From contig CAYFRV010000003.1 of NCBI GenBank assembly GCA_964345495.1, forward strand, positions 1-36,843: a DNA stretch of 36,843 nt, in the 5' to 3' direction. Below, one piece after another: positions 8,180-28,698 of the stretch. The position numbers and the translations under genes were made by a program. Positions within the stretch are counted from its first letter, which is position 1. Each line of letters begins with the position of its first letter. The notes beneath the pieces were generated by a model, which saw nothing but the letters and a program-made list of their open reading frames with translations, ran no database searches and was not told the origin of the DNA. This stretch comes from an uncultured Bacteroidales bacterium. GTDB taxonomy: Bacteria; Bacteroidota; Bacteroidia; Bacteroidales; UBA12077.

Positions 8180-8219
8180 GATTTTTGGAGTATAGTTTTT
8201 ATAATTCCTTTGAATTACT

Positions 8220-8258
8220 CGCAACGACCGCAGCGAAAGCTCGCAGCGAACGCAACGA
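8220..8258. repeat. GC-rich array of four CGCARCGA octamers in an operon-internal spacer
   Basis: The units are CGCAACGA (8220), CGCAGCGA (8229), CGCAGCGA (8242) and CGCAACGA (8251), spaced 9/13/9 bp apart. They sit in the 105-bp gap between two minus-strand genes. Confidence 0.6.
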
Positions 8259-8284: not shown

Positions 8285-9739
8285 TTACTTTATCAAAGCA
8301 TTGAATTCATTGATCACTTTATCTATTTCAGGAACCATCTTGTGAATTTCTGCCCAGTAATCCCGATAATTATACCACTGATCATTCAGATCTTTCAATT
8401 CGCGCCCTTGTTGTTCAATCCAGGTATAATACTTCAGGTTATGCACCCGCTTTCTTTCGTAGTGACTCAATTCCAATGTATTATCAATGCCCAGGTTCAT
8501 TAAATGATCGTAATCTTTTGCTGCTTCTTCGCGATTATAAGGGCCATGTTCTTTATGCATTTCCTCCATCCGGGAATCATATAACTCCATAGAATCGGTA
8601 AAAACAGTCAACACAACATCTTCCTTTGTAAGCTCATAGTATTTTGCATATTTTATAGCAGACAAAACATTACCTATGGAAGAGATACCCATTAAATCAA
8701 GCTGATCAATAAGTTTTTGATCAATGCCCTGTTCAGCCAGATATTCTCTGCCTTTCTCTTCGTTAAACAAACGAGTTGTCCGCATAGTTGATTCATCGTC
8801 GACGGCTACAACCATATCCGTATTTCTAACGTTGTGAATCCAGGGTACATGTTTATCACCAATACCTTCAATACGATGCCCGCCAAATCCATTTTGCAAT
8901 AAGGTAGGGCATTGCAGAGCTTCACCTACAGCAATTTTTGAACCGGGGTACTTTTCTTTCAGGAAATCTCCTGTGCCAAGTGTTCCGGCAGAACCTGAAG
9001 TTAAGACAACTCCTGAGTAGTTATCGCGTGCGCCCATCTCCTTTTGCAGCACTTCCATCATTGCATTACCAGTAACATCATAATGCCACAAATGATTGCC
9101 AAACTCATCAAATTGGTTAAAGATCATCACGTCATCACGCGTTTCCCTTAACTCCCAGCATTTGTCAAAAATTTCTTTCACATTGCTTTCACAACCCGGG
9201 GTAGGTATTACTTCCCCAGCCACTTTTGCAAGCCAGTCGAAACGCTCTTTTGACATACCTTCCGGTAGTATAGCAATCGATTCGCAGGCAAGTAAAGCTG
9301 CATCATAAGCTCCTCCCCGACAATAATTGCCGGTGGAAGGCCAAACAGCTTTATGTTGCTTAGGATTAAACTGTCCGGTGATCAAACGCGGAACGAGGCA
9401 TCCAAAAGTCGCCCCAACTTTGTGGGCTCCGGTTGGGAACCATTTTCCGACAAGAGCTATAATTCGCGCATCCACTCCTGTAATTTCGGACGGGAGTTCA
9501 ATATAATTTACCCCGGAATAACCTCCTCCGCTTTGTACAGGTTCATTTTTCCAGGTTATTCTGAATAAATTACGCGGATGAATATCCCACAGGCCAATTC
9601 CTTCCAACTCTTTTTTAATATCATCCGGAATCAGAGAAGGATTTTTCATCTGCTCAAATGTGGGGATGATAATATCACGTTCCCTGCAAATTTCTGCATT
9701 ATTCTTTTGTGTTTCTTTATCTACCGTTAAATCAATCAT
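8285..9739 (-). CDS. Fold-type-II PLP-dependent enzyme (TrpB-like lyase/thiolase family), specificity unknown
   Basis: 484 aa ORF. FPTGAHKVGATF resembles the TrpB-type PLP-lysine motif (TGAHK). A glycine-rich phosphate loop is present (LTSGSAGTLGTG). A ~100 aa helical C-terminal extension is absent from cysteine synthases. Confidence 0.6.
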   Translation of the reverse strand: MIDLTVDKETQKNNAEICRERDIIIPTFEQMKNPSLIPDDIKKELEGIGLWDIHPRNLFRITWKNEPVQSGGGYSGVNYIELPSEITGVDARIIALVGKWFPTGAHKVGATFGCLVPRLITGQFNPKQHKAVWPSTGNYCRGGAYDAALLACESIAILPEGMSKERFDWLAKVAGEVIPTPGCESNVKEIFDKCWELRETRDDVMIFNQFDEFGNHLWHYDVTGNAMMEVLQKEMGARDNYSGVVLTSGSAGTLGTGDFLKEKYPGSKIAVGEALQCPTLLQNGFGGHRIEGIGDKHVPWIHNVRNTDMVVAVDDESTMRTTRLFNEEKGREYLAEQGIDQKLIDQLDLMGISSIGNVLSAIKYAKYYELTKEDVVLTVFTDSMELYDSRMEEMHKEHGPYNREEAAKDYDHLMNLGIDNTLELSHYERKRVHNLKYYTWIEQQGRELKDLNDQWYNYRDYWAEIHKMVPEIDKVINEFNALIK

Positions 9740-9766: not shown

Positions 9767-10597
9767 TCAATCTTTTTTAAGGTGCTTGTTCTTTTTATCT
9801 TTTAAATGAAAAGCCTCTTTCTGATAGCGTATTGTCTGTATTTCAGCGGCAATAGATAATGCAATTTCCCATGGATTATCGGTGCCTCCGATATCTAAAC
9901 CCACAGGGCAGTAAAGGTTTGACAGATCAGGATTTTCTTCCACTTCTTCCTTCAGGCTTTCAATTAACTCCGCACGAGTATTTGTTGAAGCGACAATGCC
10001 AATATATGGAGTCTGAATGTTTAACTTAAAAATCTTATTTAAAATTGTGCTGTCGTGCTTATGTTGATATGTGGCCAGTAAGAAATAAGGATGTTTGCTA
10101 AAACCGGTTTCGTCCATATAACGACTGAAACCGGAGTATACCTTTTCACCTTCCTGAGTTAATGCATCAATCATCTCCTTGCGGTCATCAATTATTGTTA
10201 CGTTTAAATCAAGCTTTGCCAGCAATTCAAAAAGTGCCTTGCCGATGTGTCCGGCGCCGAAAATGTAAACTTTTTTCTGTTGTATAAGAGCCTCAAAAAA
10301 TAACGTTGCCTTTCCGCCGCAAGCCATCCCGGTTTTTCTTCCTTCACCCTTCTCCTTTGATAAGTTAAATTGCTCGAGGGCATTTGTTCCGGTTTCTAAG
10401 ACCTCTTCGGCTTTTTTCACAGCAAGATATTCCAGATTTCCGCCACCCACTGTACCTGTAGAAGATCCATCTTCATAGAAAAGCATTTTATTGCCTGCCA
10501 AAGCAGGGCCTTCTCCCTCTTTTTTTACAACGGTTATCAAAACTCCATTGTGACCGTTACGTCTCAACTCCCATATCTTTTTATAAATATCTTCCAT
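9767..10597 (-). CDS. xdhC: XdhC/CoxI-family molybdenum hydroxylase maturation factor
   Basis: 276 aa ORF. The N-terminus has the XdhC_CoxI pattern (GVLITVVKKEGEGPALAGNKMLF...GTVGGGNLE). The C-terminus has a Rossmann motif (VYIFGAGHIGKAL). Confidence 0.8.
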   Translation of the reverse strand: MEDIYKKIWELRRNGHNGVLITVVKKEGEGPALAGNKMLFYEDGSSTGTVGGGNLEYLAVKKAEEVLETGTNALEQFNLSKEKGEGRKTGMACGGKATLFFEALIQQKKVYIFGAGHIGKALFELLAKLDLNVTIIDDRKEMIDALTQEGEKVYSGFSRYMDETGFSKHPYFLLATYQHKHDSTILNKIFKLNIQTPYIGIVASTNTRAELIESLKEEVEENPDLSNLYCPVGLDIGGTDNPWEIALSIAAEIQTIRYQKEAFHLKDKKNKHLKKD

Positions 10598-10614
10598 ACT
10601 TTTATCCTGTCATG

Positions 10615-11373
10615 TTATTCAACTAATTTGCTCCTCTTAGTAAATTCTGCATTACTTTTATTATCAGCCAGCCAGGTAACAAATTTTTTTCCTTTCAGGT
10701 ATTTTACAGGCACAGCTTCCATTACATGTCGTTTCAAAAGCTCATAGTCCTTTATAAGCGTTCCGCAAACGGCATTAATCCCATACTCAAATAAAGCAGG
10801 AGATAATGGAGTAGAAGGTCCCATTACAATCTTGTAAGCATCATCGCGTACATATTGCATGATCTCATCGAATGTATGATTTATCAAAGAAGTTCCCGTA
10901 ATAACAGCTACATCAGCTTCCGGCATATAAGTTTTTATATCTTCTTCTGTAAGATCTCCATTTAACGGGGCCTTTTCAAAAACAAGCAATTTTTCTACTC
11001 CTTCCAGGTTATCCAGAAAAGGGAAATGGCCAACCACACCAACGCTTTTATCTTTACCTTTTTCATAGATAAGTTCCTGGGCTTTGAGCCGTTGATAAGG
11101 CCGGTCAAAAACAGACATCCATGCATTAATTGCTGCCATTCCGATAGAAGCCTTTAAAGTATATTCCGAATAAATAAATTCCGCCAGCTGACGCAAAGAA
11201 AGACTCCTGAAATTCCCTGCCTCTGTAATATGTTCGTGTGGACTGCTGCCTTTCAGCGTACTTGCAATACCTTCCGCTTCGCCTGCTTTTACTAATGTTG
11301 AAAAAGCACCCACAACCACCTCATCAACAGTGATTTCAGGTATGTCTTGTATAAATTTATCTAAAATTTGCAT
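10615..11373 (-). CDS. DUF4213/DUF364 (putative heavy-metal chelation, Rossmann-like) protein
   Basis: 252 aa ORF. The pattern SIGMAAINAW ... VGVVGHFPFLDNL ... ADVAVITGTSLINHTFDEIM ... VMGPSTPLSP matches what I recall of DUF364-family proteins. Confidence 0.65.
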   Translation of the reverse strand: MQILDKFIQDIPEITVDEVVVGAFSTLVKAGEAEGIASTLKGSSPHEHITEAGNFRSLSLRQLAEFIYSEYTLKASIGMAAINAWMSVFDRPYQRLKAQELIYEKGKDKSVGVVGHFPFLDNLEGVEKLLVFEKAPLNGDLTEEDIKTYMPEADVAVITGTSLINHTFDEIMQYVRDDAYKIVMGPSTPLSPALFEYGINAVCGTLIKDYELLKRHVMEAVPVKYLKGKKFVTWLADNKSNAEFTKRSKLVE

Positions 11374-11464: not shown

Positions 11465-12328
11465 TTATTTCAACTGTCCACCCTCTATAATTTTTTCTTC
11501 AATGAATGCCTGTATCATATCCAGACTAACAGTTTTTCTGTATTCTTTCGAAGAACGGGCATCGTTAATAGGCTGAATATACTTTTCATAACCCATCCGT
11601 ATTTCAGGAAGAATTTCCTCAATCTCTTTTTTTGATAAACCTTTCAATCGATTCTCCAGCTCTTTCCGTCTGACTATTGTCGGAGCCACAGCGCCCAGGC
11701 AAATACGGATGTCACTAAGATTGCCATCTGTAAATGATGCCATACCTGCAAAAGCGATTTTCGACAAAGCCATAGCTTTTCGCGTTCCCACTTTTCGGTA
11801 ATATTCCACATCAAAATTTTCCAACGGAATGCGGATTTCAACCAGCAATTCGTCAGATTTTCTACAGGTCTGCCCGGGGCCGGTTACAAAATTATCAATT
11901 GGCATTTCTCTGACATTATCAGCGCTTTGCAAAATAATTGATGCATCGGCTGCATATAAAAACGGAAGTGTATCAGCAGCGGGCGAAGCATTGCTTATGT
12001 TTCCACCAATCGTTGCAACATTGCGGGTAGTTACAGCTGCCATTTGTCTTGCTGTATCACTAAGTACATCCGGAATTCTTTTATCTTCAATCAAATCCCT
12101 CAGCAAAACACCAGAGCCAATTATAAGCTGTTTCGAATTAATTTCAATACGTTTCAGCGGGTCAATTTTGTTAAGAAAAAGCAAAGGGTTTTCAAACTGT
12201 GGTGAAATTCCTCCTTCTCTCCGATATTGCACCATCAAATCGGTTCCTCCGGCTATGGGAATAACCTTATTGGCTGTCATAATTTCCAGTGCTTCCTCTA
12301 ATGTTTGTGGAATAAAACCGTTGCTCAT
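11465..12328 (-). CDS. Molybdenum hydroxylase FAD-binding (medium) subunit, set 2
   Basis: 287 aa ORF with IPIAGGTDLMVQ and ATIGGNISNASPAADT FAD-binding motifs. It has a CO-dehydrogenase flavoprotein C-terminal domain. Its start overlaps the stop of the upstream Fe-S subunit gene (ATGA, 12325-12328). Confidence 0.85.
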   Translation of the reverse strand: MSNGFIPQTLEEALEIMTANKVIPIAGGTDLMVQYRREGGISPQFENPLLFLNKIDPLKRIEINSKQLIIGSGVLLRDLIEDKRIPDVLSDTARQMAAVTTRNVATIGGNISNASPAADTLPFLYAADASIILQSADNVREMPIDNFVTGPGQTCRKSDELLVEIRIPLENFDVEYYRKVGTRKAMALSKIAFAGMASFTDGNLSDIRICLGAVAPTIVRRKELENRLKGLSKKEIEEILPEIRMGYEKYIQPINDARSSKEYRKTVSLDMIQAFIEEKIIEGGQLK

Positions 12329-12792
12329 TTTTCCTCCCTTTTTTGAACTGCCAACCTGATTCCTTCAATTATCATGTTATAACCTGTACAACGGCAAAGA
12401 TTGCCGGTTATGGAATTTCTGATTTCTTCAGTGTCCGGACTTTTGTTCTCTCTAAGTAAAGCTTCTGTAGAAATAACCATACCGGGAGTACAAAAGCCAC
12501 ATTGCACGGCTCCGGATTTTTTAAAAGCTTCCTCTATGATTTTAAAATTATCGCTTTCACGAATCCCTTCTAATGTTTCTACAGAATGTCCATCGACATT
12601 ACCTACAGGCAAGATGCAAGATGTAACCACCTTTCCGTCAACCAAAACAGCGCAAGCACCACATTCTCCTTCACCACAACCTTCTTTTAAACTTCTTAGG
12701 CCAAACTCATCTCTCAGAACATCTAACAATCGATATTCTGGTGGCACATCCACCTTTACAACCCGGTTATTTAATGTAAATTCAATCTTCAT
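12325..12792 (-). CDS. Molybdenum hydroxylase [2Fe-2S] small subunit, set 2
   Basis: 155 aa ORF with CGEGECGACAVLVDGKVVTSC, CGFCTPGM and CRCTGY cluster motifs. Confidence 0.9.
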   Translation of the reverse strand: MKIEFTLNNRVVKVDVPPEYRLLDVLRDEFGLRSLKEGCGEGECGACAVLVDGKVVTSCILPVGNVDGHSVETLEGIRESDNFKIIEEAFKKSGAVQCGFCTPGMVISTEALLRENKSPDTEEIRNSITGNLCRCTGYNMIIEGIRLAVQKREEK

Positions 12793-14881
12793 TGTTTCTG
12801 TCTTTTAAATATTCTGGTGTCATTGGTATCTGGCCGACTTTCACCCCTAATGCTTGCTCCGTGGCTTCTGCCAGGGCAGGTGCCACACCGCTTAAAGGTA
12901 ATTCTCCGGCACATTTAGCTCCAAAAGGCCCGAATTCGTATGGATTCTCTACAAAATCACATTCAATTTCGGGTATATCAACGGAAGTGGGAATAGTATA
13001 ATCCGTAAGATTAAGCTGATCAAGTTTGCCCTTCCCGTGGGTCAATTTTTCAAGATAGGCATAACCAAGCCCCTGTATCATACCGCCATGTATTTGCCCC
13101 TTTATAATGTCTTCGTCCAGGGCTACTCCGATATCGTATACAGCCCATATTTTTTCCACTTTGAGCTCACATGTAACCGGATCAACTTCCACTTCTGCCA
13201 CATTAGCTCCCCATGAATAAACAGGATAAGCATCGCCCTGAAATTTGTCATTATCCCAGCTCACATAATCCGGATGTTTATATACCTCTTTCACTTCTGT
13301 TTCTTCTTCGTTCCATTTTTCCAATAGCCTATTACAAGCTTTTCTGACAAGCCCCCCGATAATCATAGCAGTTCGCGAAGCGGCAGTAGGGCCTGAATCA
13401 GGAACCCTATCCGTATCCTGAGTGACAAATTCTACATCGGCCTCAGGTATAGAAAGACTGTAAGCCACTATTTTTATAAGAGTGGTTAATGCTCCCTGTC
13501 CCATTTCAACGTTAGAAGTATAAATACCTACTTTATTTCCTTTCTTTTTCAAATAAACCTCTGCGTTTATATTAACTTCGCCTTTTCCGGTAAAACCACA
13601 GCCATGAAGGAAAAAGGAAATCCCCAACCCTTTATTTTTTCCCGGATCAGATTTTTTCCGCTCATAACCTGACATTGCATTGATCTTATCCAATACTTCC
13701 CGAATTTTAACATCCGACCACATCTTGCCACCTGTTGAAGTGGTATCTCCCTTTTTCAGAAAATAGTGCTTTTTAAAATCCAGAGATGGCTTTCCAACTT
13801 CATGAGCTACACGATTCATAAGCTGCTCTATTCCAAAAAGCACCTGCGGAGAACCAAATCCCCGAAAAGCGCCGGAAGGTACAGTATGGGTTTTAACAAC
13901 TCTTCCTCTCACTTGCAGATTTGGAAAAGCATAAACTCCTGTAGCTGTAAAAATACCACGTTGGAGCACTACAGGAGAGATCGTAGCATAAGCACCTCCA
14001 TCAAACGAAACATCGATGTCAAGTGCGGTAATTTCATTTTTTTCATTTAAAGCTACACGGTATTTCAGTGTTGATGGATGCCGTTTAGTTGTGGCTTCAA
14101 TATCTTCCTTTCTGTCAAGAATAAGCCTGACAGTTTTATTGGTTTTCAGCGCTGCAGTTGCTGCCTGTGCAGCCAACAGGGAAGGATATTCCTCCTTTCC
14201 GCCAAATGCCCCGCCGGTAACAGTTTGAATGATCTGTATTTTGTCTTCAGGAAACCCTGTAGCTTCAATTATCGCATTTTTAACAAAATAGGGGCATTGA
14301 ACAGATCCGTAAATAATAATTCTACCTTCATGATATTTAGCAACCACGCCATTGGTTTCCAGGTAAAGGTGTTCAGGACGGCCTGTATGGTATTCATCCT
14401 CAATAATTTTTGATGCATTAGCGAAAGCTTTATCAGGATCGCCTTTCGAATAATCATACTCTACATGAATCTCCTTTTTTCGTTCCGCTTCTTCAATGGA
14501 TGTAACCGGTGATAAATCGCTGTACTCAATCTCTACTTGTGATGCCAGTTCGGCAGTTTTTTCTTTAGAGGGGCCAACAATAAGCAAAATAGGCTGGCCG
14601 ATGTAATGCACTTCATCTTCAGCAAAAACAGGATGATCGGACACCACTGTCTGCATCCTGTTATTTCCCTGAATATCATCCTTATTGATTATTTCGTAGC
14701 CTTTTGGCAGTTCAGGCAAATGTATGGCTTCTATTTTTGCATAAGCTTTGCTGCTGCGCACGGTTCGGGCATGCACATAGTTTTCCAGGTTCATATCTGC
14801 AATATACTCTGCCTGCCCGGAAATTTTCTTTTCCGAATCCAATCTTGGTATGGAATCACTTATTGATTTATTCATCATCAT
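12782..14881 (-). CDS. Molybdopterin-binding large subunit of a xanthine dehydrogenase-family hydroxylase, set 2
   Basis: 699 aa ORF with GGAFGGKEE, AFRGFGSPQ and FGAKCAGELP motifs characteristic of the aldehyde oxidase/xanthine dehydrogenase family. It overlaps the Fe-S gene by 11 nt. Confidence 0.9.
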   Translation of the reverse strand: MMMNKSISDSIPRLDSEKKISGQAEYIADMNLENYVHARTVRSSKAYAKIEAIHLPELPKGYEIINKDDIQGNNRMQTVVSDHPVFAEDEVHYIGQPILLIVGPSKEKTAELASQVEIEYSDLSPVTSIEEAERKKEIHVEYDYSKGDPDKAFANASKIIEDEYHTGRPEHLYLETNGVVAKYHEGRIIIYGSVQCPYFVKNAIIEATGFPEDKIQIIQTVTGGAFGGKEEYPSLLAAQAATAALKTNKTVRLILDRKEDIEATTKRHPSTLKYRVALNEKNEITALDIDVSFDGGAYATISPVVLQRGIFTATGVYAFPNLQVRGRVVKTHTVPSGAFRGFGSPQVLFGIEQLMNRVAHEVGKPSLDFKKHYFLKKGDTTSTGGKMWSDVKIREVLDKINAMSGYERKKSDPGKNKGLGISFFLHGCGFTGKGEVNINAEVYLKKKGNKVGIYTSNVEMGQGALTTLIKIVAYSLSIPEADVEFVTQDTDRVPDSGPTAASRTAMIIGGLVRKACNRLLEKWNEEETEVKEVYKHPDYVSWDNDKFQGDAYPVYSWGANVAEVEVDPVTCELKVEKIWAVYDIGVALDEDIIKGQIHGGMIQGLGYAYLEKLTHGKGKLDQLNLTDYTIPTSVDIPEIECDFVENPYEFGPFGAKCAGELPLSGVAPALAEATEQALGVKVGQIPMTPEYLKDRNNED

Positions 14882-14883
14882 TA

Positions 14884-15453
14884 TTACTTTTCAAAAAACC
14901 TCTTCTTAATATACTCATAATCTTTATCCGTGTCAATATCCAGCAAAACCCCTTCATCATCAACTTCAACAATATTAGCTTCAAGGCTATGAATAAAATC
15001 CCTGAGAATACCATCTTCCGGCATTTCAAGAATCCCCTCACGGCAATCATTGCGAAACAATACAGGATGTCCTTTCTTTCCTTTGAAGGAAGGATTAACA
15101 ATATCCCCCTCAGTTTCCAGAAGCTTTGTCAGGGTTTGCCTTTTAATCATTGGCTGGTCGCCGGGGAGGACAAAAAACGTATCAGAACTCAATTCTTTTA
15201 CTCCACATTGCACAGAAGAAAACATCCCCTTGCGGAAATCCGTATTTTCAATTATTCTGACACCCTTGTGACTCTGCAGTATCTGTTCACATTCTTGTGC
15301 TTTATGGCCTGCAACAACAATCACATTATCACACACATCCAATAGTGTATCTGCTGTATGTTCTATTACAGACTTTTCACCAAGAGGCAAAGTCATTTTA
15401 TAGCGACTTGTCCGTGAAGACAAACCCGCTGCAAGAACTATGGCTTCAATCAT
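14884..15453 (-). CDS. mocA: Molybdenum cofactor cytidylyltransferase (MocA/YgfJ family)
   Basis: 189 aa ORF. The N-terminus AIVLAAGLSSRTSRYKMTLPLGEKSVIEH is the NTP_transf_3 signature. The stop lies 2 nt before the start of the Mo subunit gene. Confidence 0.8.
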   Translation of the reverse strand: MIEAIVLAAGLSSRTSRYKMTLPLGEKSVIEHTADTLLDVCDNVIVVAGHKAQECEQILQSHKGVRIIENTDFRKGMFSSVQCGVKELSSDTFFVLPGDQPMIKRQTLTKLLETEGDIVNPSFKGKKGHPVLFRNDCREGILEMPEDGILRDFIHSLEANIVEVDDEGVLLDIDTDKDYEYIKKRFFEK

Positions 15454-16627
15454 CGATATCCTCCAGTTTTTCTATAGATTTTTCCGGTATTTCCACTCCT
15501 TTACCTGCAGAATCAATATCCTTCATTCCACTACCAGTAGCCATAAGAACAGTTGTTGCATCCTCAGGCATTTGGTTCTTCATTTTAAGAAAACCCGCCA
15601 TCGAAGCTGCAGAAGAAGGTTCAACGAACAATCCTGTTGTAGATGAAAGCTCCCGTTGTGCCTTTAAAATTTCCTGATCGGAAACTCTTACACAGCTACC
15701 TCCGTGTGCTTTCAATTCACGTAAAACATAATAGCCATTAGCCGGCACATCTACACTGATAGAGTCGGCAAGGGTGTTAGCCTTAACTGGTTCTCCGAAA
15801 TCACCTTTTTCCATAGCCCTGGTTAAAGCATCGCTATTTTCAGCCTGAACAGCAATAATTTCAGGGAAGCTCTTAATCCAACCCAGCTTTTTCAAGTCCT
15901 TAAACCCTTTCAGAATACCACTAAGCACCACGGCATCGCCGGTTGGAACGAAAATATAATCCGGTACTTTCTTTAATTGATGATACAATTCGAAAGCTGC
16001 AGTTTTTTTCCCTTCAATGGTCAGAGGATTAAAACCGGTATTGCGATTAAGTGAATTGCCCGAACCTTTATATTGCATCGAAAGCTGGAAAGCATTATCA
16101 TAACTTCCCTTTACCAAAACCACTTTAGCTCCGTATTGCAATGACTGGATAAGTTTGGCTTTAGGGACATTTTCGGGTACAAATATCATTATTTTTAATC
16201 CCGCGGCAGCTCCAATGCCTGCCATAGATGAAGCTGCATTCCCTGTGGAAGCCACGGTAATGTTTGTTATACCCCACTTTTTAGCAAAAGCAGCTACCAG
16301 CCAGGATGCCCGGTCTTTATATGAACCGGTTGGATTCACCGTGTCATCCTTAATAAAAAGATTAGGCGTACCTATTTTTTCCCGCAAAATGTGTGGCGAC
16401 CATAGGGGCGTATTGCCTACCGGTAATTCCGAAAAATAATTTTTATCAACAGGTAAAACATCATAAATGGAGCTGTTTTCAGATAAAGAGCCTTTCATCT
16501 CTACTTCAAGGATACCTCGCAAAGGTCGCTTTTTTTCCTGCTTTTCCTGACAAACAGGACAAAGCATAACTTCCGGTTCAATTGGATATTCCTTTCCACA
16601 TTCGCTACATTTATAAACAAACTCCAT
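15446..16627 (-). CDS. Threonine synthase-family PLP enzyme with an N-terminal zinc ribbon
   Basis: 393 aa ORF. A CxxC...CxxC ribbon is present (YKCSECGKEY...LCPVCQE). The PLP-lysine motif NPTGSYKDRAS is followed by ASTGNAASSMA, as in ThrC. It overlaps mocA by 8 nt. Confidence 0.75.
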   Translation of the reverse strand: MEFVYKCSECGKEYPIEPEVMLCPVCQEKQEKKRPLRGILEVEMKGSLSENSSIYDVLPVDKNYFSELPVGNTPLWSPHILREKIGTPNLFIKDDTVNPTGSYKDRASWLVAAFAKKWGITNITVASTGNAASSMAGIGAAAGLKIMIFVPENVPKAKLIQSLQYGAKVVLVKGSYDNAFQLSMQYKGSGNSLNRNTGFNPLTIEGKKTAAFELYHQLKKVPDYIFVPTGDAVVLSGILKGFKDLKKLGWIKSFPEIIAVQAENSDALTRAMEKGDFGEPVKANTLADSISVDVPANGYYVLRELKAHGGSCVRVSDQEILKAQRELSSTTGLFVEPSSAASMAGFLKMKNQMPEDATTVLMATGSGMKDIDSAGKGVEIPEKSIEKLEDIDD

Positions 16628-16663
16628 AATATTAAATTTTTACTTTTTAGTCTAAGCATAATT

Positions 16664-16749
16664 ACCTGTAAATACTAATTGATTTTCTTCATTTGCCCCC
16701 ATGCCTTAAAGAGTGCAAAGAAAATCAATTAGTTCCTGAATTTACAGGT
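16664..16749. other. Long imperfect palindrome / RNA hairpin in the only large intra-cluster spacer
   Basis: ACCTGTAAAT..CTAATTGATTTTCTT..TTTGC pairs with GCAAA..AAGAAAATCAATTAG..ATTTACAGGT in 10 + 15 + 5 bp arms. There is a 7-nt bulge (TTCCTGA) and an 18-nt loop. Confidence 0.6.
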
Positions 16750-16819
16750 TTAAAAGGACATATCATTTTTATTTTCTCATTAATATTATTTTGGTAAACA
16801 GACGGATACCTTATTTTTC

Positions 16820-17812
16820 TTATCCCATTAATTCTTTTAAAAGCCCTCTTGCCGTATGCAATCTATTTTCGGCTTCATCGTAAATAATAGAATTCGGGGA
16901 GTCAAGCACCTCGTCAGTCACCTCTTTTCCTCTATCTGCGGGAAGCGCATGCATAATTTTTGCATCCTTATTCGCCATAGAATAAAGCGTTTCATCTAAA
17001 ATCCAGTCCGGGTGTTTTTCCAGGTTTTCTTTCATTATAGCTTTATTCTCATCGGTATCCTCCCATTTGTCAAAGTATCCAAAACCTCCCCAGTTTTTCG
17101 GGATTACAATATCTGCACCTTTCACTGCTTCCTCTTTGTCATGAGTGAATTCCAGTTTGGTACCGTTTTCTGCTGCATTTTTCTTTGCTTGTTCAACAAT
17201 ATCATCCTGCAGAGGAAATTCTTCGGGCATTCCTACCGTAACATCCATTCCGAAGCGTGGGAAAAAGAGCACTTGCGACTGAGGTACTGAAAGTGGTTTG
17301 GCATGTGAGGTTGCATAAGTCCACAAAATGGTAACTTTTAACTTTTGAGATTTTGGAAAATGCTCCTTAATTGTAAAGTAATCGGCAATAACCTGCAAGG
17401 GATGGTAAATATCATCCTGCATAGAAATCATTGGAACATCAGCATACTTTGCTATGTCTTTGAGATACTGGTTGCCCAACTCATGGAAACAGTTCCGAAT
17501 GGCAATCCCTTCACCCATTCGACCAAGAACATTGCCCGTATCTTTGACTGTTTCCCCGTGGGAAATCTGCATTTTTCCTTTTGTAAGATCGTGAGCGTGA
17601 CCACCAAGCTGAGTCATAGCAGCTTCCATCGAATTACGGGTACGAGTGGATTGCTCAAAAAATATCATAAACAAGGTTCTTTGTTTCAGATAGTCGAAAA
17701 CTTTACCTTTTTTATATCGCTTTTTTAAATCAGCGGTAGATTCCAGTAAATAATTAATCTCTTCTTTCGTCCAATCCTGAAATGTTATGAGGTCTTTTCC
17801 TTTTAAATTCAT
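16820..17812 (-). CDS. ygeW: YgeW-like carbamoyltransferase (ATCase/OTCase superfamily)
   Basis: 330 aa ORF with the STRTR carbamoyl-phosphate motif (EQSTRTRNS) and HPLQ. KMQISHGETVKDT, KPLSVPQ...PRFGMDVT and ADIVIPKNW match stretches I recall from E. coli YgeW. The OTCase DxxxSMG motif is absent. Confidence 0.75.
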   Translation of the reverse strand: MNLKGKDLITFQDWTKEEINYLLESTADLKKRYKKGKVFDYLKQRTLFMIFFEQSTRTRNSMEAAMTQLGGHAHDLTKGKMQISHGETVKDTGNVLGRMGEGIAIRNCFHELGNQYLKDIAKYADVPMISMQDDIYHPLQVIADYFTIKEHFPKSQKLKVTILWTYATSHAKPLSVPQSQVLFFPRFGMDVTVGMPEEFPLQDDIVEQAKKNAAENGTKLEFTHDKEEAVKGADIVIPKNWGGFGYFDKWEDTDENKAIMKENLEKHPDWILDETLYSMANKDAKIMHALPADRGKEVTDEVLDSPNSIIYDEAENRLHTARGLLKELMG

Positions 17813-17866
17813 ATTTGTTTTGTATTTAAGTTCGTAATTTAGTAATTATCCGTTTCATTGTTATTC

Positions 17867-19054
17867 TTAGCCTTCCAAAGTATAAGGCAATAATGCATAA
17901 AACGCGGCTGCTTTGTCCAGATGTTCTATGGGTGTTTTTTCGTTCGGGGCATGTGCCATTACCTCATTACCCGGACCAAAGCCCAGACATGGTATCTCAT
18001 AACGGCCGCAAACAGCAACAGCATTTGTTGAGAATGTCCACTTATCCACTACCGGATCATTTCCAAAAAGATTTTTAAAATTGGTTACTCCGGATTGTAT
18101 CAAAGGATGATCCTCTTCAACTTTCCATGTGGGGAAGTACTGCTCCTGTTTGAATACAGTACCTTTATAACTTGGTTTTTCATAAAGGGGTACTTCAACT
18201 TCAGCGTCCTCACCCAATAAATCAGAAACTTCTTTCACTGCAGACTCTTTTGTTTCTCCCCATGTCAGGCGTCTGTCAATATGGATATTTGCTTTGTCCG
18301 GTATAGCACAAAGAGAAGGTGCATCACTTTTAAACACAGTAGGAGCCAGTGTTCCTTTACCCAGTAATTCATCGGTTTTAAGGTTCTCATTCAATTCCTC
18401 TAACTGAACTGCAAAACGGGAAGCACTGTAAATGGTGTTTTTGCCCCTATCAGGTGCCGAAGCGTGTGCAGAAAGGCCTTTGAAATAAACTTCCATTTCC
18501 ATACGACCGCGATGTCCACGATAAATATTAAGATTCGTAGGTTCGGTGATTACGCAGTAATCCGGTTTCAATCCCTCTTTTTCAATCAGGTAAAGCCAGC
18601 ACAATCCATCGGCATCTTCCTCCATAATCGTAAATGTAAAATATATCGTCCAGTTGCCGTCGTAATTCATCTCCTGAAGAATACGGGCTGCAGTAATCAT
18701 AGAAGCAGCGCCTCCCTCCTGATCAACGGTGCCACGGCCATAAACGTAGCCGTCTTTGATTTCACCGGAAAACGGATCAAAGTCCCATTGGGAAACATCA
18801 CCGGTATCAACTGTATCAATATGTGCATCTATAGCCAGTACTTTTTCGCCCGATCCGATTTTGGCAATGACGTTTCCCAAACCATCCGTCCAGTGATTCT
18901 TTATTCCGGCTTTATCCAAAAGTTCAGTAACTTTTTCCATTACTTCCTTCTCTTCTCCGCTTATGGAAGGAATCTTTACCATTTCCGACAAGCATTCACT
19001 TGTAAACGAGGAGTATTGTTTCGTCTTATTCAGTATGTCTTCCTTCATATTCAT
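17867..19054 (-). CDS. ygeY: YgeY-family M20 metallopeptidase/amidohydrolase
   Basis: 395 aa ORF. YFPTWKVEEDH, VVDKWTFSTN and GFGPGNEVMAHAPNEKT are near-identical to E. coli YgeY segments. The M20 metal ligands are present (DAHIDTV, EEDADG). Confidence 0.85.
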   Translation of the reverse strand: MNMKEDILNKTKQYSSFTSECLSEMVKIPSISGEEKEVMEKVTELLDKAGIKNHWTDGLGNVIAKIGSGEKVLAIDAHIDTVDTGDVSQWDFDPFSGEIKDGYVYGRGTVDQEGGAASMITAARILQEMNYDGNWTIYFTFTIMEEDADGLCWLYLIEKEGLKPDYCVITEPTNLNIYRGHRGRMEMEVYFKGLSAHASAPDRGKNTIYSASRFAVQLEELNENLKTDELLGKGTLAPTVFKSDAPSLCAIPDKANIHIDRRLTWGETKESAVKEVSDLLGEDAEVEVPLYEKPSYKGTVFKQEQYFPTWKVEEDHPLIQSGVTNFKNLFGNDPVVDKWTFSTNAVAVCGRYEIPCLGFGPGNEVMAHAPNEKTPIEHLDKAAAFYALLPYTLEG

Positions 19055-19081
19055 TATTCTCCTTTCAAATTTTATAGTTTT

Positions 19082-22000
19082 TTATAAATTATTGCTTAGT
19101 GCTTTAGCGGCTTCATAAATCACACTCATTCTAATGGCCTCATCAAATTTTATTTGCCCGTCCTTATTAAACGTGACCTTCTCAGGGAAAAAATCCTTTA
19201 CCCGCAATTCAGCCTGAGCTTCCTCCGATTCAAAAAAGAATTTACTATTGTTCCTTTGAAGCGACTTCACCGCGCCTTCAGTTTTAAAGAAAAGCACATC
19301 ATTATCGAAGAAATAACCTTCTTCAGCTTCGGAAAAGCTTTTTTCTGTCAGGTGAAGTTGTGGTTTGTCCTTAAAAGGCGCACCTGAAGAGGGACAGAAT
19401 GTTTCACAATTTCCGCATTCATTACAAAAATCTTTTATATTGAGCACCTGGTAACGCTGCTGTAAACTAAAAATACCGTTCGTCCCTTTAGTAACTCTTC
19501 CATTTTCTGCACGAGCAAAGGGAATCTCTACAGAGAAAGGTTCTACCGCATAAGAATGATTTGCCCGGTTAGGGCACACATCCACGCAGATATTGCAGAG
19601 CTCATCGCAAAACATGCAACGCCCGGCCTCCTGTTGAATTTCGTCTTCAGAAAGTGGTTGATTTACCAACTCAAAATCAGTTCGTTCTTCCGGCGAAAGT
19701 TTTTTTATATGCTTTCCCCGTTCAGTCCGGGCTTTGTTATATTGCAACTCAGGAAGTGTCACATCCTTATCAACATGAACCCGACTAGTATCTTCAGGCT
19801 TCACTCCTGATCTTTCCATAATTTTCCAGGCAGTATATTTCCCATCTGCAATAGCCTTTATCAAAGTAGAAGCTCCTCTTTTGGCATCTCCCCCAATGAT
19901 AACCTTTTCAGACGAACCGGTTAAATCTCCTTGTTTATCAATTAATTCCCTGAATTCCGGTTCAACATCCTGTCCAAAAGCAGGAATAATAGTATTGCAA
20001 TCAATTGTAATTTGCTTATTATTATCAGGAACAGGTTTTGGACGGCCGCTATCATCTTTTCCTTCAATTTTCATTTTCTGAAACTTCATACCCTTTATTT
20101 GTCCCTGATTAGTTAATACCTGCAAAGGATTGGCAAGTTCGACCCATTCTATTCCTTCTTCCAATGCCTCTTGCAGTTCCTCATCATCGGCCGGCATTTC
20201 ATCCCTGGTTCGGCGGTAGGCGAGTGTAACAGTTCCCTGCGCTCCTGCCAGCCGTTTTGCAGCCCGAGCTACATCAAGGGCTACATTCCCGCCCCCAAGA
20301 ACGACAATATCTTTTCCAAGGTTCGTCTTTCTACTAAACTTAATATCAGAAAGCAATTTAAGCGGGGAAACCAAACCTTCCGAAACATCCTGCACTCCCT
20401 CTATTTTCAAATTTTTGCTCTTTTGAGCTCCAACAGCGATATAAATAAAGTCAGATTTTTCCTTTAGTTCCTTAAATTTTCCTCTGTTTACTTTTGTTTT
20501 ATAATGAATGGTAACTCCCATTCGCTTAATTCGCTGAACATCCTTTGCAAGAGCTTCATCAGACAGCCGGAAAGAAGGGATTGTTTCGGCCACCATGCCA
20601 CCCGCTTGCTCTTTAGATTCAAACATTTCTACATCAAATCCGGCAAGTGCCAAATAATAAGCACAGCTAAGCCCGGATGGTCCGGCACCAATTATAGACA
20701 CTTTTCCTTTACTATCATTTGAATTGTTGGCATGTTTGGAAAGATTTGCTTTTTCTGCAATAAATCGTTTAATTTCCCTGATAAGAAGCGGATCATCGTA
20801 TAGCACTCTTGTACATCTTGTCTGACATTCATGGTCACAAATCATTCCGGAAACGGAAGGAAAAGGATTGTCATGCATAATCACTTCAAAAGCTTTATCA
20901 TACTCTCCACGGCTCGCATAATAAAGATAACCGGGTACATTTTGTCCTGACGGACAAGTGCTTTCGCATGGCGCCTGAATGCAATCAAAATGATTCAAAG
21001 GCCTCTCCAAATGAATACTGGGGGATTGAGCGTTATAATCAGGATTTTCAAGAACAGAATCTGCATAGCGATTGAGATTCTTTCGGGCAGCTTCATGAAC
21101 ATCTTCCTCCTTAGCTTTCCACTTGCTATATTCTTCGAGGTTTTTGGCTCCGGCTGCATTACATTCCTGTTGCAAAATTTCTATATACTGACTAAGCTTT
21201 CCATAACCGCCGGGTCGCAACAAATCGGTACTAACGGTAACAGGGTTCAATCCACAAGAAATAGTATCGGCAATGTTAAAAGTATCAGCACCACCTGAAA
21301 ATGACACAGGAACTTCTTTCAAGGCATCTTCATTTTTGAGCTTTCGGGCAACATTAATACTTATCGGGTGCAACCCTTTGCCGCTCATAAACATAGCATC
21401 CCCCTCAAAAACATTTTTATGGTTGAGGGATTCCAATGTATTTGTAAGTTTCAGCCCGAAATTAAGATTTTCGTTTTCTGCAGTTTCCATCAATGAGGTG
21501 ATCACTTTAACGGCTTCATCATATTCAATATCATGTTCAAAAGCTTCATCAGGAACAACAGTAGAATATCCGTATTGATCAAGTATGTATCGGATTTTAT
21601 CTGGTCCCAGCAAGGTAGGATTGAATTTTATAAATGTATGCAATCCCTTTTCCTTAAGCAAAAATTCTCCAATCTGCCGGATTTCACCAGGAGGACATCC
21701 GTGCATTGTGGAAAGTGTAACATTATCCGAGATACAATCGGGAATATCAAGCTCTTTAGCTCGCGGATAAAGGTCTGCAATTGCTTCAATCTTTTCATTT
21801 TTTTCTTTGCTGCAGTCATTCATTTTACTCAGGAACCACTGCACATTGTCTTTCTTAATTCCTTCGAGGTCATAGCCAAGACTCATATTGAAGATTGTTC
21901 CAATATCGTCAGTCCATTGGAATTTATCTTTCAGAACATGGATCAGTATCCAGGCATTGAGATATTCATCATAGGATTGGTTTATTTTCAATTCCTGAGA

Positions 22001-22330
22001 AAATTCGCAGTTATATCCTTCAAAAGGCATGTCTATACATGGCCGGGGAATATCAAGTTCGTCATCGGTCTGGACAGTCTTCAATTCAATATAACGGGCA
22101 CCACACAGCCATGCGCTAACAATATTTTGTGCCATCTGAGAGTGAGGTCCGGCCGAAATACCTACGGGATTTTCCAATGGCTGATCAAACATCCGGGTTC
22201 TCAAAGGGTTATTTTTGCCCGGTTTATAAAAAAGGGTCTCAGGGATATCAAACACTTCCTTCTCCTCAACACCTTTCATAGTAAGTTCAAAAATATGCCG
22301 CCATGGGATCAACGAAAATTCACTATTCAT
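19082..22330 (-). CDS. ygfK: YgfK-family multidomain Fe-S flavoprotein oxidoreductase
   Basis: 1082 aa ORF. The N-terminal DHODH/DPD-like barrel carries VTLSTMHGCPPGEI...FIKFNPTLLG, as in E. coli YgfK. The middle has GltD-like dinucleotide folds (VSIIGAGPSGL, VVLGGGNVALD). The C-terminus has two ferredoxin motifs (CDELCNICVDVCP, CNECGNCETFCP). Confidence 0.9.
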   Translation of the reverse strand: MNSEFSLIPWRHIFELTMKGVEEKEVFDIPETLFYKPGKNNPLRTRMFDQPLENPVGISAGPHSQMAQNIVSAWLCGARYIELKTVQTDDELDIPRPCIDMPFEGYNCEFSQELKINQSYDEYLNAWILIHVLKDKFQWTDDIGTIFNMSLGYDLEGIKKDNVQWFLSKMNDCSKEKNEKIEAIADLYPRAKELDIPDCISDNVTLSTMHGCPPGEIRQIGEFLLKEKGLHTFIKFNPTLLGPDKIRYILDQYGYSTVVPDEAFEHDIEYDEAVKVITSLMETAENENLNFGLKLTNTLESLNHKNVFEGDAMFMSGKGLHPISINVARKLKNEDALKEVPVSFSGGADTFNIADTISCGLNPVTVSTDLLRPGGYGKLSQYIEILQQECNAAGAKNLEEYSKWKAKEEDVHEAARKNLNRYADSVLENPDYNAQSPSIHLERPLNHFDCIQAPCESTCPSGQNVPGYLYYASRGEYDKAFEVIMHDNPFPSVSGMICDHECQTRCTRVLYDDPLLIREIKRFIAEKANLSKHANNSNDSKGKVSIIGAGPSGLSCAYYLALAGFDVEMFESKEQAGGMVAETIPSFRLSDEALAKDVQRIKRMGVTIHYKTKVNRGKFKELKEKSDFIYIAVGAQKSKNLKIEGVQDVSEGLVSPLKLLSDIKFSRKTNLGKDIVVLGGGNVALDVARAAKRLAGAQGTVTLAYRRTRDEMPADDEELQEALEEGIEWVELANPLQVLTNQGQIKGMKFQKMKIEGKDDSGRPKPVPDNNKQITIDCNTIIPAFGQDVEPEFRELIDKQGDLTGSSEKVIIGGDAKRGASTLIKAIADGKYTAWKIMERSGVKPEDTSRVHVDKDVTLPELQYNKARTERGKHIKKLSPEERTDFELVNQPLSEDEIQQEAGRCMFCDELCNICVDVCPNRANHSYAVEPFSVEIPFARAENGRVTKGTNGIFSLQQRYQVLNIKDFCNECGNCETFCPSSGAPFKDKPQLHLTEKSFSEAEEGYFFDNDVLFFKTEGAVKSLQRNNSKFFFESEEAQAELRVKDFFPEKVTFNKDGQIKFDEAIRMSVIYEAAKALSNNL

Positions 22331-23606
22331 AAAACCTCCCCTGTAATTTTTTTGCTGCTTTCTTTAATTCTTTTTTTATTTCATCTTCATCCACAGTTTG
22401 TATCTTACCGTCTTTATAAATTATCTCTCCACCTGAAATGGTCATGTGGGTTTTCTGGGCTCCAAAGCCAAGTATAAGATGAAAGAAAAGATTGTCAATA
22501 TTTATGGGTGTTTCAGGCACATAATCCAATACAGCCAAATCGGCAGAACGGCCTAGCTGAAGGCCACCGCTTTGCGGAAAAACTGAATTAATTGCTTCTT
22601 CAGAACGCCGGAATAATTTATCCTGCGGATTTTCAACAGCGCCATTTCTCCTCAGAAAATGAGAGCGGTAGCTGCCTATAATATTTCCTGACATTCCATC
22701 TGTGCCAATGATGTAATCCCTGATCTTTTCGGTATCCATCATTCCCACATTATTATTGGCATTTGACTCAGGATTGGAAACTACCACCGGTTTATATTCA
22801 TTGATTAACCGTGCATCATTTTCAGAAATATGAACACAATGTATCAAAAGAGAAGAGTTCGATAATAAATTAAATTGATTTAGTCTGTCGATCGGGCCAT
22901 CAAACCCTTCATCCAAACAGAAATCTAAATCTTCCCTTCCTTCACCACAGTGAATATGAATCGGCATCTTATTCGGTTTGTTATGGCTGATAGCCTTAAG
23001 CGACTCACCACTTAATGTGAAGTTGGCATGTAACCCCATCATTCCTTTTGTATTAGGGGAATCAATGTGTTCATTATAGAATTTAAGATTTTCATCCAAC
23101 TGCTGCCGGAATACATCTTCTCCTTCTCTGTCTGAAATCTCAAAAGAAAGAGCACTTTTTAAACCAACTTCGTTAAAAGCTTTCTCAATCAAATTAAGGC
23201 TTCCTGTCACATAGTTGGAGGATGCATGATGGTCAAAAATGGTAGTCACTCCGTATTTTGCCGAATCAATAACACCGGAAAGCGCAGAATAATATATTGT
23301 TTCCTCATCCAAAACCCGGTCAAGCGGCCACCAAAGATTTTTAAGGATATTAGAAAGCTTATCAGTTGGTCCAAGGGGAACGATTCCAACGGCAAAACGC
23401 GAATACAAATGATGATGCGGATTTAATAAACCCGGAATAATTACCCGGCCACCAGCATCAAAATATTCATCATTTTTATTTTCCATTTTATCAATATTCC
23501 CAAGATCGGCAATCTTACCATTTTCAATCCTGACAAAACCCTTGTCGTATATAACTGAATATCCATCGGTTACAACTGCATTTCCTATTGTATAATTCGC
23601 TGACAT
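22323..23606 (-). CDS. ssnA: SsnA-family aminohydrolase
   Basis: 427 aa ORF. LLNPHHHLYS and LKNLWWPLDRVLDEETIYYSAL...IFDHHAS closely parallel E. coli SsnA. It overlaps ygfK by 8 nt. Confidence 0.85.
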   Translation of the reverse strand: MSANYTIGNAVVTDGYSVIYDKGFVRIENGKIADLGNIDKMENKNDEYFDAGGRVIIPGLLNPHHHLYSRFAVGIVPLGPTDKLSNILKNLWWPLDRVLDEETIYYSALSGVIDSAKYGVTTIFDHHASSNYVTGSLNLIEKAFNEVGLKSALSFEISDREGEDVFRQQLDENLKFYNEHIDSPNTKGMMGLHANFTLSGESLKAISHNKPNKMPIHIHCGEGREDLDFCLDEGFDGPIDRLNQFNLLSNSSLLIHCVHISENDARLINEYKPVVVSNPESNANNNVGMMDTEKIRDYIIGTDGMSGNIIGSYRSHFLRRNGAVENPQDKLFRRSEEAINSVFPQSGGLQLGRSADLAVLDYVPETPINIDNLFFHLILGFGAQKTHMTISGGEIIYKDGKIQTVDEDEIKKELKKAAKKLQGRFYE

Positions 23607-27392: not shown

Positions 27393-27852
27393 AATCTTTC
27401 ATTTTTTGTGCGGCTAATTTAACCGCATCAATTATTTTAATATATCCCGTGCATCGACAAAGTACACCTTCCATTCCCGCTTCTATTTCTTCATCTGTCG
27501 GGTTGGAATTATTCTGTAATAAATAATAGGCAGACAAAACCATTGCAGGGGTACAAAAACCACATTGCACGGCTCCAGTTTCAACAAACGCCTTTTGAAT
27601 AACGTGAGGATGATGGATATCGCCTATTCCCTTTACCGTGGTTATTTTTTGCCCAATAACGGCAGCGGTGAACACACGACATGAATTTACAGGTTTTCCA
27701 TTCAGGAGTACCATGCAGGATCCGCACTCTCCTTCATCACATCCGCGCTTTACTTCACTATAACCATGATTTCTAAGGGTATCCAAGAGATATTCCTCTT
27801 CCCCATGAACCATCCGTTTTTCTTTGTTATTGATATAATAAATATTTTCCAT
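27376..27852 (-). CDS. Molybdenum hydroxylase [2Fe-2S] small subunit, set 1
   Basis: 158 aa ORF with CDEGECGSCMVLLNGKPVNSC, CGFCTPAM and CRCTGY. Confidence 0.9.
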   Translation of the reverse strand: MENIYYINNKEKRMVHGEEEYLLDTLRNHGYSEVKRGCDEGECGSCMVLLNGKPVNSCRVFTAAVIGQKITTVKGIGDIHHPHVIQKAFVETGAVQCGFCTPAMVLSAYYLLQNNSNPTDEEIEAGMEGVLCRCTGYIKIIDAVKLAAQKMKDYEEIS

Positions 27853-27855
27853 TAG

Positions 27856-28665: not shown

Positions 28666-28698
28666 TGACTTAGGGGTGTATTTAATATTTAGAACCAA

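Follow-up and report, generated by a model that had tools for sequence, protein, structure and literature searches.

The window analyzed here is a 36,843-nucleotide (nt) stretch of contig CAYFRV010000003.1, from an uncultured Bacteroidales bacterium (assembly GCA_964345495.1) whose source is a microbial-mat metagenome. At 15446–16627, its minus strand carries a 393-residue open reading frame (ORF) with an ATG start, encoding a fold-type-II pyridoxal phosphate (PLP) enzyme that resembles threonine synthase (ThrC) and that we propose to be a lyase consuming 2,3-diaminopropionate (DAP) in place of YgeX. The Pfam PALP domain (PF00291) matches residues 68 to 365 with 252.7 bits, and an AlphaFold2 (AF2) model of the protein has a predicted local distance difference test (pLDDT) score of 88.6. 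The PLP-binding lysine, K104, lies in the sequence NPTGSYKDR (16316–16318, minus strand) and aligns with K61 of Thermus thermophilus ThrC. Near the N terminus, four cysteines (C7, C10, C23, and C26; CSEC...CPVC; 16550–16609, minus strand) constitute a zinc ribbon. Because the ribbon cysteines and the lysine are retained in 118 to 120 of 120 homologs (K104 in all 120), these features do not reflect chance. The first-pass annotation, which had described a ThrC-family PLP enzyme with an N-terminal ribbon, is thus borne out by the PALP score, by the four cysteines, and by the fold and sequence relatives described below. It had also proposed translational coupling to mocA through an 8-nt overlap, and the ORF coordinates and sequence confirm that the gene for the MocA-like molybdenum cofactor (Moco) cytidylyltransferase (14884–15453, minus strand) and the ThrC-like ORF share 8 nt (...GATGATTGA / ATGATTGAA). 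On the upstream side, a 192-nt spacer separates the ThrC-like gene from a carbamoyltransferase gene (16820–17812).

The best solved relatives of the protein are the threonine synthases of Aquifex aeolicus, Bacillus subtilis, T. thermophilus, and Mycobacterium tuberculosis, with E-values of 1e-50 to 1e-45 and 31 to 34% identity. Foldseek comparisons with ThrC structures (2ZSJ, 6CGQ, 1UIM, and 2D1F) gave a probability of 1.0 and template modeling (TM) scores, normalized to the target, of 0.79 to 0.83; diaminopropionate ammonia-lyase (DpaL) was not among the 50 best fold matches of the AF2 model. The fold, the PLP lysine, the STGN loop, and the C-terminal TG(N/S)G motif are shared with ThrC. The cut-offs of all five ThrC PRK equivalog models were missed, for example with 215.7 bits versus 303 and 202.3 bits versus 421. 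When mapped onto the T. thermophilus enzyme, A131 replaces T88, T197 replaces S155, T203 replaces R160, D231 replaces N188, two valines replace G190–N191, and D288–S289 replace a Thr–Ala pair. We take T88, S155, R160, and N188 of T. thermophilus ThrC to be the ligands of the substrate phosphate; in each of the three solved ThrCs that were aligned, these positions are occupied by T, S, R, and N.

The altered residues fall in four stretches of the minus strand, as placed by alignment. A131 sits in the loop STGNAASS (residues 127 to 134; 16226–16249), which with the preceding alanine reads ASTGNAASS (residues 126 to 134). In the ThrC motif NP(Y/H)R(I/L)EGQKT, R160 and the Gln after it give way to T203 and K207 (16007–16021). 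The sequence D231-A-V-V (15926–15937) takes the place of N188-A-G-N, and D288–S289 (15761–15766) take that of T-A in the ThrC motif ATAIRIGNP. A131, T197, T203, K207, D231, D288, and S289 are present in 120 of the 120 closest homologs. The changes T88→A, R160→T, N188→D, GN→V(I/V), TA→DS, and Q→K, with the PLP ligands kept, are likewise invariant in these homologs and in 85 of 85 metagenomic members, A131 and D231 being true by construction in the 80 loci that were scanned with the signature motifs as the search pattern, and T203, K207, D288, and S289 not. The positions aligned with the phosphate ligands are therefore replaced in all members examined, in keeping with the view of the first-pass annotation that a biosynthetic threonine synthase has no evident role here.

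Among 150 representatives of 50%-identity clusters, ∼100 show the A...K...D...DS signature. The 24 representatives without it, including those with true-ThrC residues, form a single clade in a neighbor-joining tree that is rough (Kimura-corrected p-distances, rooted on the distant YgeX) and was used solely for the split between proteins with and without the signature. As judged from these alignments, the ThrC-like proteins are a large, distinct subfamily in which the putative anion-binding Arg and Thr have been lost and two invariant aspartates gained. The four-cysteine ribbon is also present in P0340, a relative with true-ThrC residues, and is thus ancestral rather than specific to the subfamily; it is an inherited structural feature of the ThrC branch. 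The only fusions among the 150 representatives were to an inositol-monophosphatase (IMPase)-family domain (P0265, 718 residues) and to a LeuA dimerization domain (P0360, which lacks the signature). A member from Halanaerobiales (locus L090, 11508–12776) carries the non-ThrC signature and passes the model PRK08197, "threonine synthase," with 311 bits versus a cut-off of 303, so this curated model may give subfamily members the name of threonine synthase.

Every gene in the window from 28698 down to 6761 lies on the minus strand. In the direction of transcription, the ThrC-like gene is preceded by a first molybdenum (Mo) hydroxylase set, with flavin adenine dinucleotide (FAD), 2Fe-2S, and Mo subunits closest to XdhD/XdhA (25077–28698); a cyclic amidohydrolase of allantoinase/hydantoinase type, the proposed HyuA counterpart (23720–25084); an SsnA-like amidohydrolase (22323–23606); YgfK, of the 2,8-dioxopurine reductase family (19082–22330; 867 bits versus a cut-off of 835); a YgeY-family M20 hydrolase (17867–19054; 493 bits versus 321); and the carbamoyltransferase noted above, the proposed YgeW counterpart, which would phosphorolyze a ureido group. 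The SsnA-like protein is 31% identical to Escherichia coli SsnA over 392 residues and remains below the NCBIfam cut-offs (383.7 bits versus 444 for PRK07203 and 348.6 versus 455.5 for Se_ssnA). The carbamoyltransferase (330 residues) had been called "ygeW-like" in the first pass. The enzyme class stands, but not its assignment to the knotted YgeW type: it scores 182 bits against that model (cut-off 453) and 266 and 255 bits as an ornithine/putrescine carbamoyltransferase. Downstream of mocA follow a second Mo hydroxylase set, with Mo, 2Fe-2S, and FAD subunits (11465–14881); a DUF4213/DUF364 protein and an XdhC-like maturation factor (9767–11373); a second PLP enzyme of 484 residues with a CysK/CBS fold, here termed PALP48x (8285–9739); and an amidohydrolase of the 8-oxoguanine deaminase family (6761–8224; 597.5 bits versus a cut-off of 532). 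Genes of the PorV2 and BT0820 families are also present in the window and, together with contigs of metagenome-assembled genomes that are 93% identical to it, assign it to Bacteroidota/Bacteroidales. The name "allantoinase" that NCBIfam would give the hydantoinase-like gene (373 bits versus a cut-off of 358) is probably wrong, as the context argues for a ureidomethyl-hydantoin substrate, and the stereospecificity of this enzyme may differ from that of E. coli HyuA. The maturation genes of the window are those for the DUF4213/DUF364 protein, XdhC, and MocA; YqeB, YqeC, and SelD were not found in it. Relatives (for example, locus L005, 15139–17968) additionally carry an uncharacterized protein of ∼205 residues and an NTPase_1 protein.

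A reductive uric acid pathway was described in 2025 in E. coli and Clostridium (Li et al.; Liu et al.). In the published order, urate is converted to 2,8-dioxopurine by XdhD and reduced by YgfK, and the rings are opened by SsnA and HyuA to yield 2,3-diureidopropionate. The ureido groups are then removed by YgeW or UacY, together with YgeY, to give DAP, which YgeX breaks down to pyruvate and ammonia; ygeX mutants accumulate DAP. The co-location of an XdhD-type hydroxylase, YgfK, an SsnA-like protein, a hydantoinase, a carbamoyltransferase, and YgeY shows that the cluster is a Bacteroidota version of this reductive (2,8-dioxopurine) pathway. The window holds a counterpart for each published step except that of YgeX; neither a YgeX/DpaL homolog nor a carbamate kinase was found in it. 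The ThrC-like gene had been said to lie roughly where E. coli has ygeX, and this positional analogy holds, the order in E. coli being ygeW–ygeX–ygeY.

The genomic setting is widely conserved. A metagenome scan with the signature motifs yielded 80 loci, which were annotated by tblastn with the proteins of the window and of E. coli. Flanking sequence of 4 kb or more is available for 57 loci, and 56 of them carry uricolytic genes: YgeY in 44, SsnA in 43, the carbamoyltransferase in 37, YgfK in 35, and the Mo subunit in 34. The gene immediately upstream of the ThrC-like gene (63 loci) is that for YgeY in 27 cases and for a carbamoyltransferase in 22. Many clusters encode YgeW, YgfK, SsnA, and XdhD that are 40 to 70% identical to the E. 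coli proteins, and a tblastn search with E. coli YgeX returned no match in 88 loci. These data indicate that only YgeX has been swapped. A scan of genome contigs added only two close relatives, an archaeal ThrC, and a locus from Cloacimonadota. Homologs from WOR-3, Acidobacteriota, and Marinimicrobia (58 to 60% identity) show a nearly unchanged gene order, and the Halanaerobiales member (39% identity) keeps the signature and lies beside HyuA, YgeY, a carbamoyltransferase, and a Mo hydroxylase. Members at ∼41% identity occur in "lower-pathway" operons without any hydroxylase, in Elusimicrobiota, in Bdellovibrionota, and on other contigs. The Elusimicrobiota operon consists of YgeY, carbamoyltransferase, carbamate kinase, the ThrC-like gene, PALP48x, and carbamoyltransferase; in Bdellovibrionota, a YgeW 69% identical to that of E. 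coli has carbamate kinase and YgeY close by; one contig carries an SsnA-like gene, PALP48x, YgeY, two carbamoyltransferases, carbamate kinase, and the ThrC-like gene; and a minimal module on another comprises only carbamoyltransferase, carbamate kinase, and the ThrC-like gene. Altogether, the uricolytic context is kept across at least nine lineages, so the conservation in such clusters on which the first-pass proposal had hinged was found both in the scanned loci and in Halanaerobiales, Elusimicrobiota, Bdellovibrionota, and haloarchaea. Some other loci have two carbamoyltransferases and carbamate kinase without YgeY, which suggests that each of the two ureido groups can be recovered in the form of carbamoyl phosphate.

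The haloarchaeal clusters lie on megaplasmids. Haloarcula hispanica pHH406 (loci L098 and L100, ∼323.5–353 kb) and Haloterrigena turkmenica pHTUR01 (L101) each carry a 37%-identical copy, HISP_RS18845 and HTUR_RS19450, respectively, that has the signature and is annotated as thrC. It lies within a full reductive uricolytic cluster, together with amidohydrolases that resemble SsnA and HyuA, a luciferase-like (F420-type) reductase, a D-aminoacylase of the UacY type, an M20 hydrolase, two Mo hydroxylases, DsrE, and YqeB; the Haloarcula cluster, of which a longer stretch was read, adds SelD, TusA, YqeC, and RidA. In the haloarchaeal stretches read, the ThrC-like gene is the sole annotated PLP enzyme, and a tblastn search of ∼43 kb of pHH406 detected neither DpaL nor PALP48x. 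RidA clears the enamine/imine produced by β-eliminating PLP enzymes, and in the Haloarcula cluster RidA would have no PLP enzyme to serve other than the ThrC-like protein. In these clusters, the luciferase-like reductase stands in the place of YgfK and the D-aminoacylase in that of YgeW. The Haloterrigena cluster also encodes an NADPH-dependent F420 reductase, and an NAD-kinase/IMPase fusion gene (L101, 12753–14465) directly adjoins its ThrC-like gene.

As cleavage of DAP is the one step missing from the window and YgeX is absent, we propose that the ThrC-like enzyme fills it. Specifically, we predict, with a confidence slightly better than even, that the protein is a neofunctionalized ThrC paralog that consumes DAP and is a non-orthologous replacement of YgeX, a replacement that the first-pass annotation had hypothesized. 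The proposal draws on the position of the gene beside the enzymes that would make DAP, even where the hydroxylases lie elsewhere; on its presence where DpaL is missing in the loci examined; on the lack of any other annotated PLP enzyme in the haloarchaeal stretches read; and on the apparent change of the pocket from anion-binding to acidic, which would suit a cationic amino leaving group. According to this model, a purine would be converted to 2,3-diureidopropionate by the Mo hydroxylases, YgfK, SsnA, and the hydantoinase-like enzyme, and the carbamoyltransferase and YgeY would take off the two ureido groups to give DAP. DAP would then form an external aldimine on the K104-bound PLP of the ThrC-like enzyme, and α,β-elimination of the β-amino group would produce aminoacrylate, to be hydrolyzed to pyruvate and ammonia. 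The invariant D231 and D288 may take over the place of the lost phosphate ligands and bind or protonate the cationic amino leaving group. We infer the substrate, the preference for β-elimination over replacement, and the role of the two aspartates from sequence and gene context. The phosphate released by ThrC is needed for the formation of threonine rather than oxobutyrate; on this product-assisted mechanism, a ThrC scaffold without the phosphate grip would be expected to eliminate and not to hydrate.

Several observations weigh against this assignment. The assignment of the T. thermophilus residues as phosphate ligands is an assumption; the protein passes the broad thrC model TIGR00260 (189.7 bits versus a cut-off of 167.1); one Opitutae member lies alone amid housekeeping genes; the ThrC-like gene is coupled to mocA here, and MocA directly follows it in 24 of 62 loci; and PALP48x accompanies the ThrC-like gene in 46 of 57 loci, being the next gene downstream in 24 of 62. 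The TIGR00260 score is what an ordinary biosynthetic threonine synthase that had come to lie in the operon by chance would give, and such an origin would also fit the solved relatives, the best of which are threonine synthases, and the name "threonine synthase" that homologs bear in their sources. We regard it as extremely improbable, given the replaced phosphate-ligand positions in every member, the scores below all the ThrC PRK equivalog cut-offs, the uricolytic context of the family, and the location of the haloarchaeal copies within catabolic clusters on megaplasmids; moreover, thrA, thrB, or hom neighbors were found neither in the window nor in ∼100 loci.

The proximity to mocA would be explained if the ThrC-like protein served in the maturation of the neighboring Mo hydroxylase, perhaps as a donor of sulfur or selenium to its cofactor, and clusters that lack YqeB, YqeC, and SelD would fit such a function. 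However, the operons in which the family is found in L093, L094, L096, and L097 have no Mo hydroxylase within 8 to 10 kb, in haloarchaea the family coexists with a full SelD/YqeB/YqeC set, and we know of no ThrC-type enzyme that acts in cofactor sulfuration. A role in maturation therefore appears highly unlikely.

The main rival, which the first-pass annotation had overlooked, comes from PALP48x, which could itself be the DAP lyase or act jointly with the ThrC-like enzyme. PALP48x (8285–9739, minus strand, in the window; 17983–19446 in L005; 9263–10705 in L093; 8959–10458 in L099) is at least 70% identical across phyla, with a mean column identity of 79%, and has the PLP lysine, an STGN loop, and a glycine loop; its fold is that of CysK/CBS, a family in which the first half-reaction is a β-elimination. 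Its homologs at the 40% level, on Rhizobium and Bosea plasmids, have a TauE/SafE sulfite exporter and an M20 hydrolase as neighbors, joined in Bosea by RidA and by a DpaL-like gene; the exporter and RidA suggest that these homologs are lyases of β-substituted alanines, a further point in favor of PALP48x. The real lyase for DAP (or albizziin) might thus be PALP48x, with the ThrC-like enzyme carrying out a different, unrecognized step, such as a β-replacement in which water displaces the amino group and serine results, an elimination that acts on a mono-ureido intermediate, or racemization. We consider this unlikely. The haloarchaeal clusters and the minimal module of carbamoyltransferase, carbamate kinase, and ThrC-like gene have the ThrC-like gene but no PALP48x, and L091 and L092 have PALP48x but no ThrC-like gene; in several loci PALP48x is located between MocA and XdhC, and in many it adjoins the 8-oxoguanine-deaminase-like gene, rather than YgeY; and the published eight-enzyme pathway has no vacant step for a second PLP enzyme.

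Alternatively, the two proteins may replace YgeX as a pair, with one enzyme per enantiomer, as a hetero-oligomer, or in consecutive reactions. The two genes are not only often adjacent but overlap in L093, and they co-occur in Bacteroidota, WOR-3, Acidobacteriota, Marinimicrobia, Elusimicrobiota, Bdellovibrionota, and Halanaerobiales; YgeX, for its part, acts on D- and L-DAP equally (Li et al.). Since each gene also occurs without the other and no fusion of the two was seen among the 150 representatives, we hold such a pair to be decidedly doubtful. Somewhat more broadly, the ThrC-like enzyme and PALP48x might constitute a new two-enzyme ending of the pathway, in which D- and L-DAP streams are split or the C3 unit leaves through a new intermediate or product (serine, or direct elimination of urea from albizziin). 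This is a minor possibility in our estimation; if true, most environmental phyla would finish the pathway by a chemistry other than that of the E. coli/Clostridium model.

Returning to the proposal of a ThrC-derived DAP lyase, we compared the protein with enzymes of known function. YgeX/DpaL (TIGR01747 and TIGR03528) also belongs to PF00291 and has the same place in the cluster, by carbamoyltransferase and YgeY, and the two families seem to be mutually exclusive in the loci examined. However, BLASTP aligned the ThrC-like protein with E. coli YgeX at only 23% identity over 167 residues, and none of TIGR01747, TIGR03528, and PRK08206 was among its 25 best NCBIfam matches, whereas E. coli YgeX itself scores 697 bits. 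DpaL, for which Lys77 and Asp120 have been reported as potential catalytic residues, also lacks a zinc ribbon, unlike the ThrC-like protein. Unlike ThrC, the subfamily is found in a catabolic context instead of a thr operon. Precedents for a recruitment of the ThrC scaffold to C3 substrates that bear a β leaving group are cysteate synthase and CapA, ThrC-derived enzymes that act in the synthesis of coenzyme M and sulfonolipids; they differ from the ThrC-like subfamily in the signature residues and in genomic context. CapA2 of Alistipes finegoldii (Bacteroidota; 9K3C) is among the fold matches with only 18% identity, and the 25 best matches of the ThrC-like protein do not include the cysteate synthase model TIGR03844, against which the Halanaerobiales member scores 103 bits (cut-off 324.9). 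Next in sequence and fold similarity come the serine/threonine dehydratases and serine racemase, which carry out the chemistry proposed here, α,β-elimination to aminoacrylate; they match with ∼100 bits or fewer and 22 to 25% identity, and they have no ribbon.

Neither of the 2025 pathway papers mentions a ThrC-like or second PLP enzyme. Li et al. counted "YgeX" by means of Pfam PF00291, a count that would silently include the ThrC-like family, and their list of phyla is without Bacteroidota, Acidobacteriota, and archaea. A full-text literature search for "threonine synthase" together with ssnA, ygeY, or DpaL returned nothing relevant, which is no proof of absence. The fold and the pathway are known; new is an undescribed, widely misannotated subfamily that is predicted to take over a defined step. 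If YgeX is indeed replaced, the pathway reaches Bacteroidota, Acidobacteriota, Marinimicrobia, WOR-3, Cloacimonadota, Bdellovibrionota, and haloarchaea, which the published surveys do not list, and surveys that use YgeX as a marker would overlook these organisms. The loci come from mats, salt lakes, sediments, and sludge. The automatic label "threonine synthase" can also falsely credit genomes with threonine biosynthesis. The subfamily would represent a γ-replacement enzyme turned to a C3 diamino acid, apparently by exchange of an anion pocket for two aspartates, and its haloarchaeal carriers are cultured and genetically tractable.

The 192-nt spacer upstream of the ThrC-like gene contains a hairpin-forming insertion of ∼177 to 179 nt (16636–16814, minus strand), recognized by folding and by comparison with relatives. 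Its minimum free energy is −40 kcal/mol (z = −3.5), it is flanked on both sides by AAAAAT, and it is present as a single copy in the window. An Rfam scan of the whole window gave no match, and thus the long spacer is not a known riboswitch. In the 93%-identical relative L002, the spacer is only 15 nt, and the RNA contig of a relative omits 16635–16815; these comparisons identify the long spacer as a strain-specific insertion, which may be a small mobile element. This RNA contig, from a salt-lake metatranscriptome, is 2978 nt long and ∼88% identical to the window, and it extends from 19056 to 15921, from the start of YgeY across the carbamoyltransferase and into the ThrC-like gene. It is consistent with cotranscription of these genes in a relative, with carry-over of DNA possible. 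In salt-lake run X10, assessed over window positions 12000–20000, contigs ∼88% identical to the window represent the YgeY, carbamoyltransferase, and ThrC-like genes at a depth of ∼20, and coverage was much lower or patchy over MocA and the second hydroxylase set.

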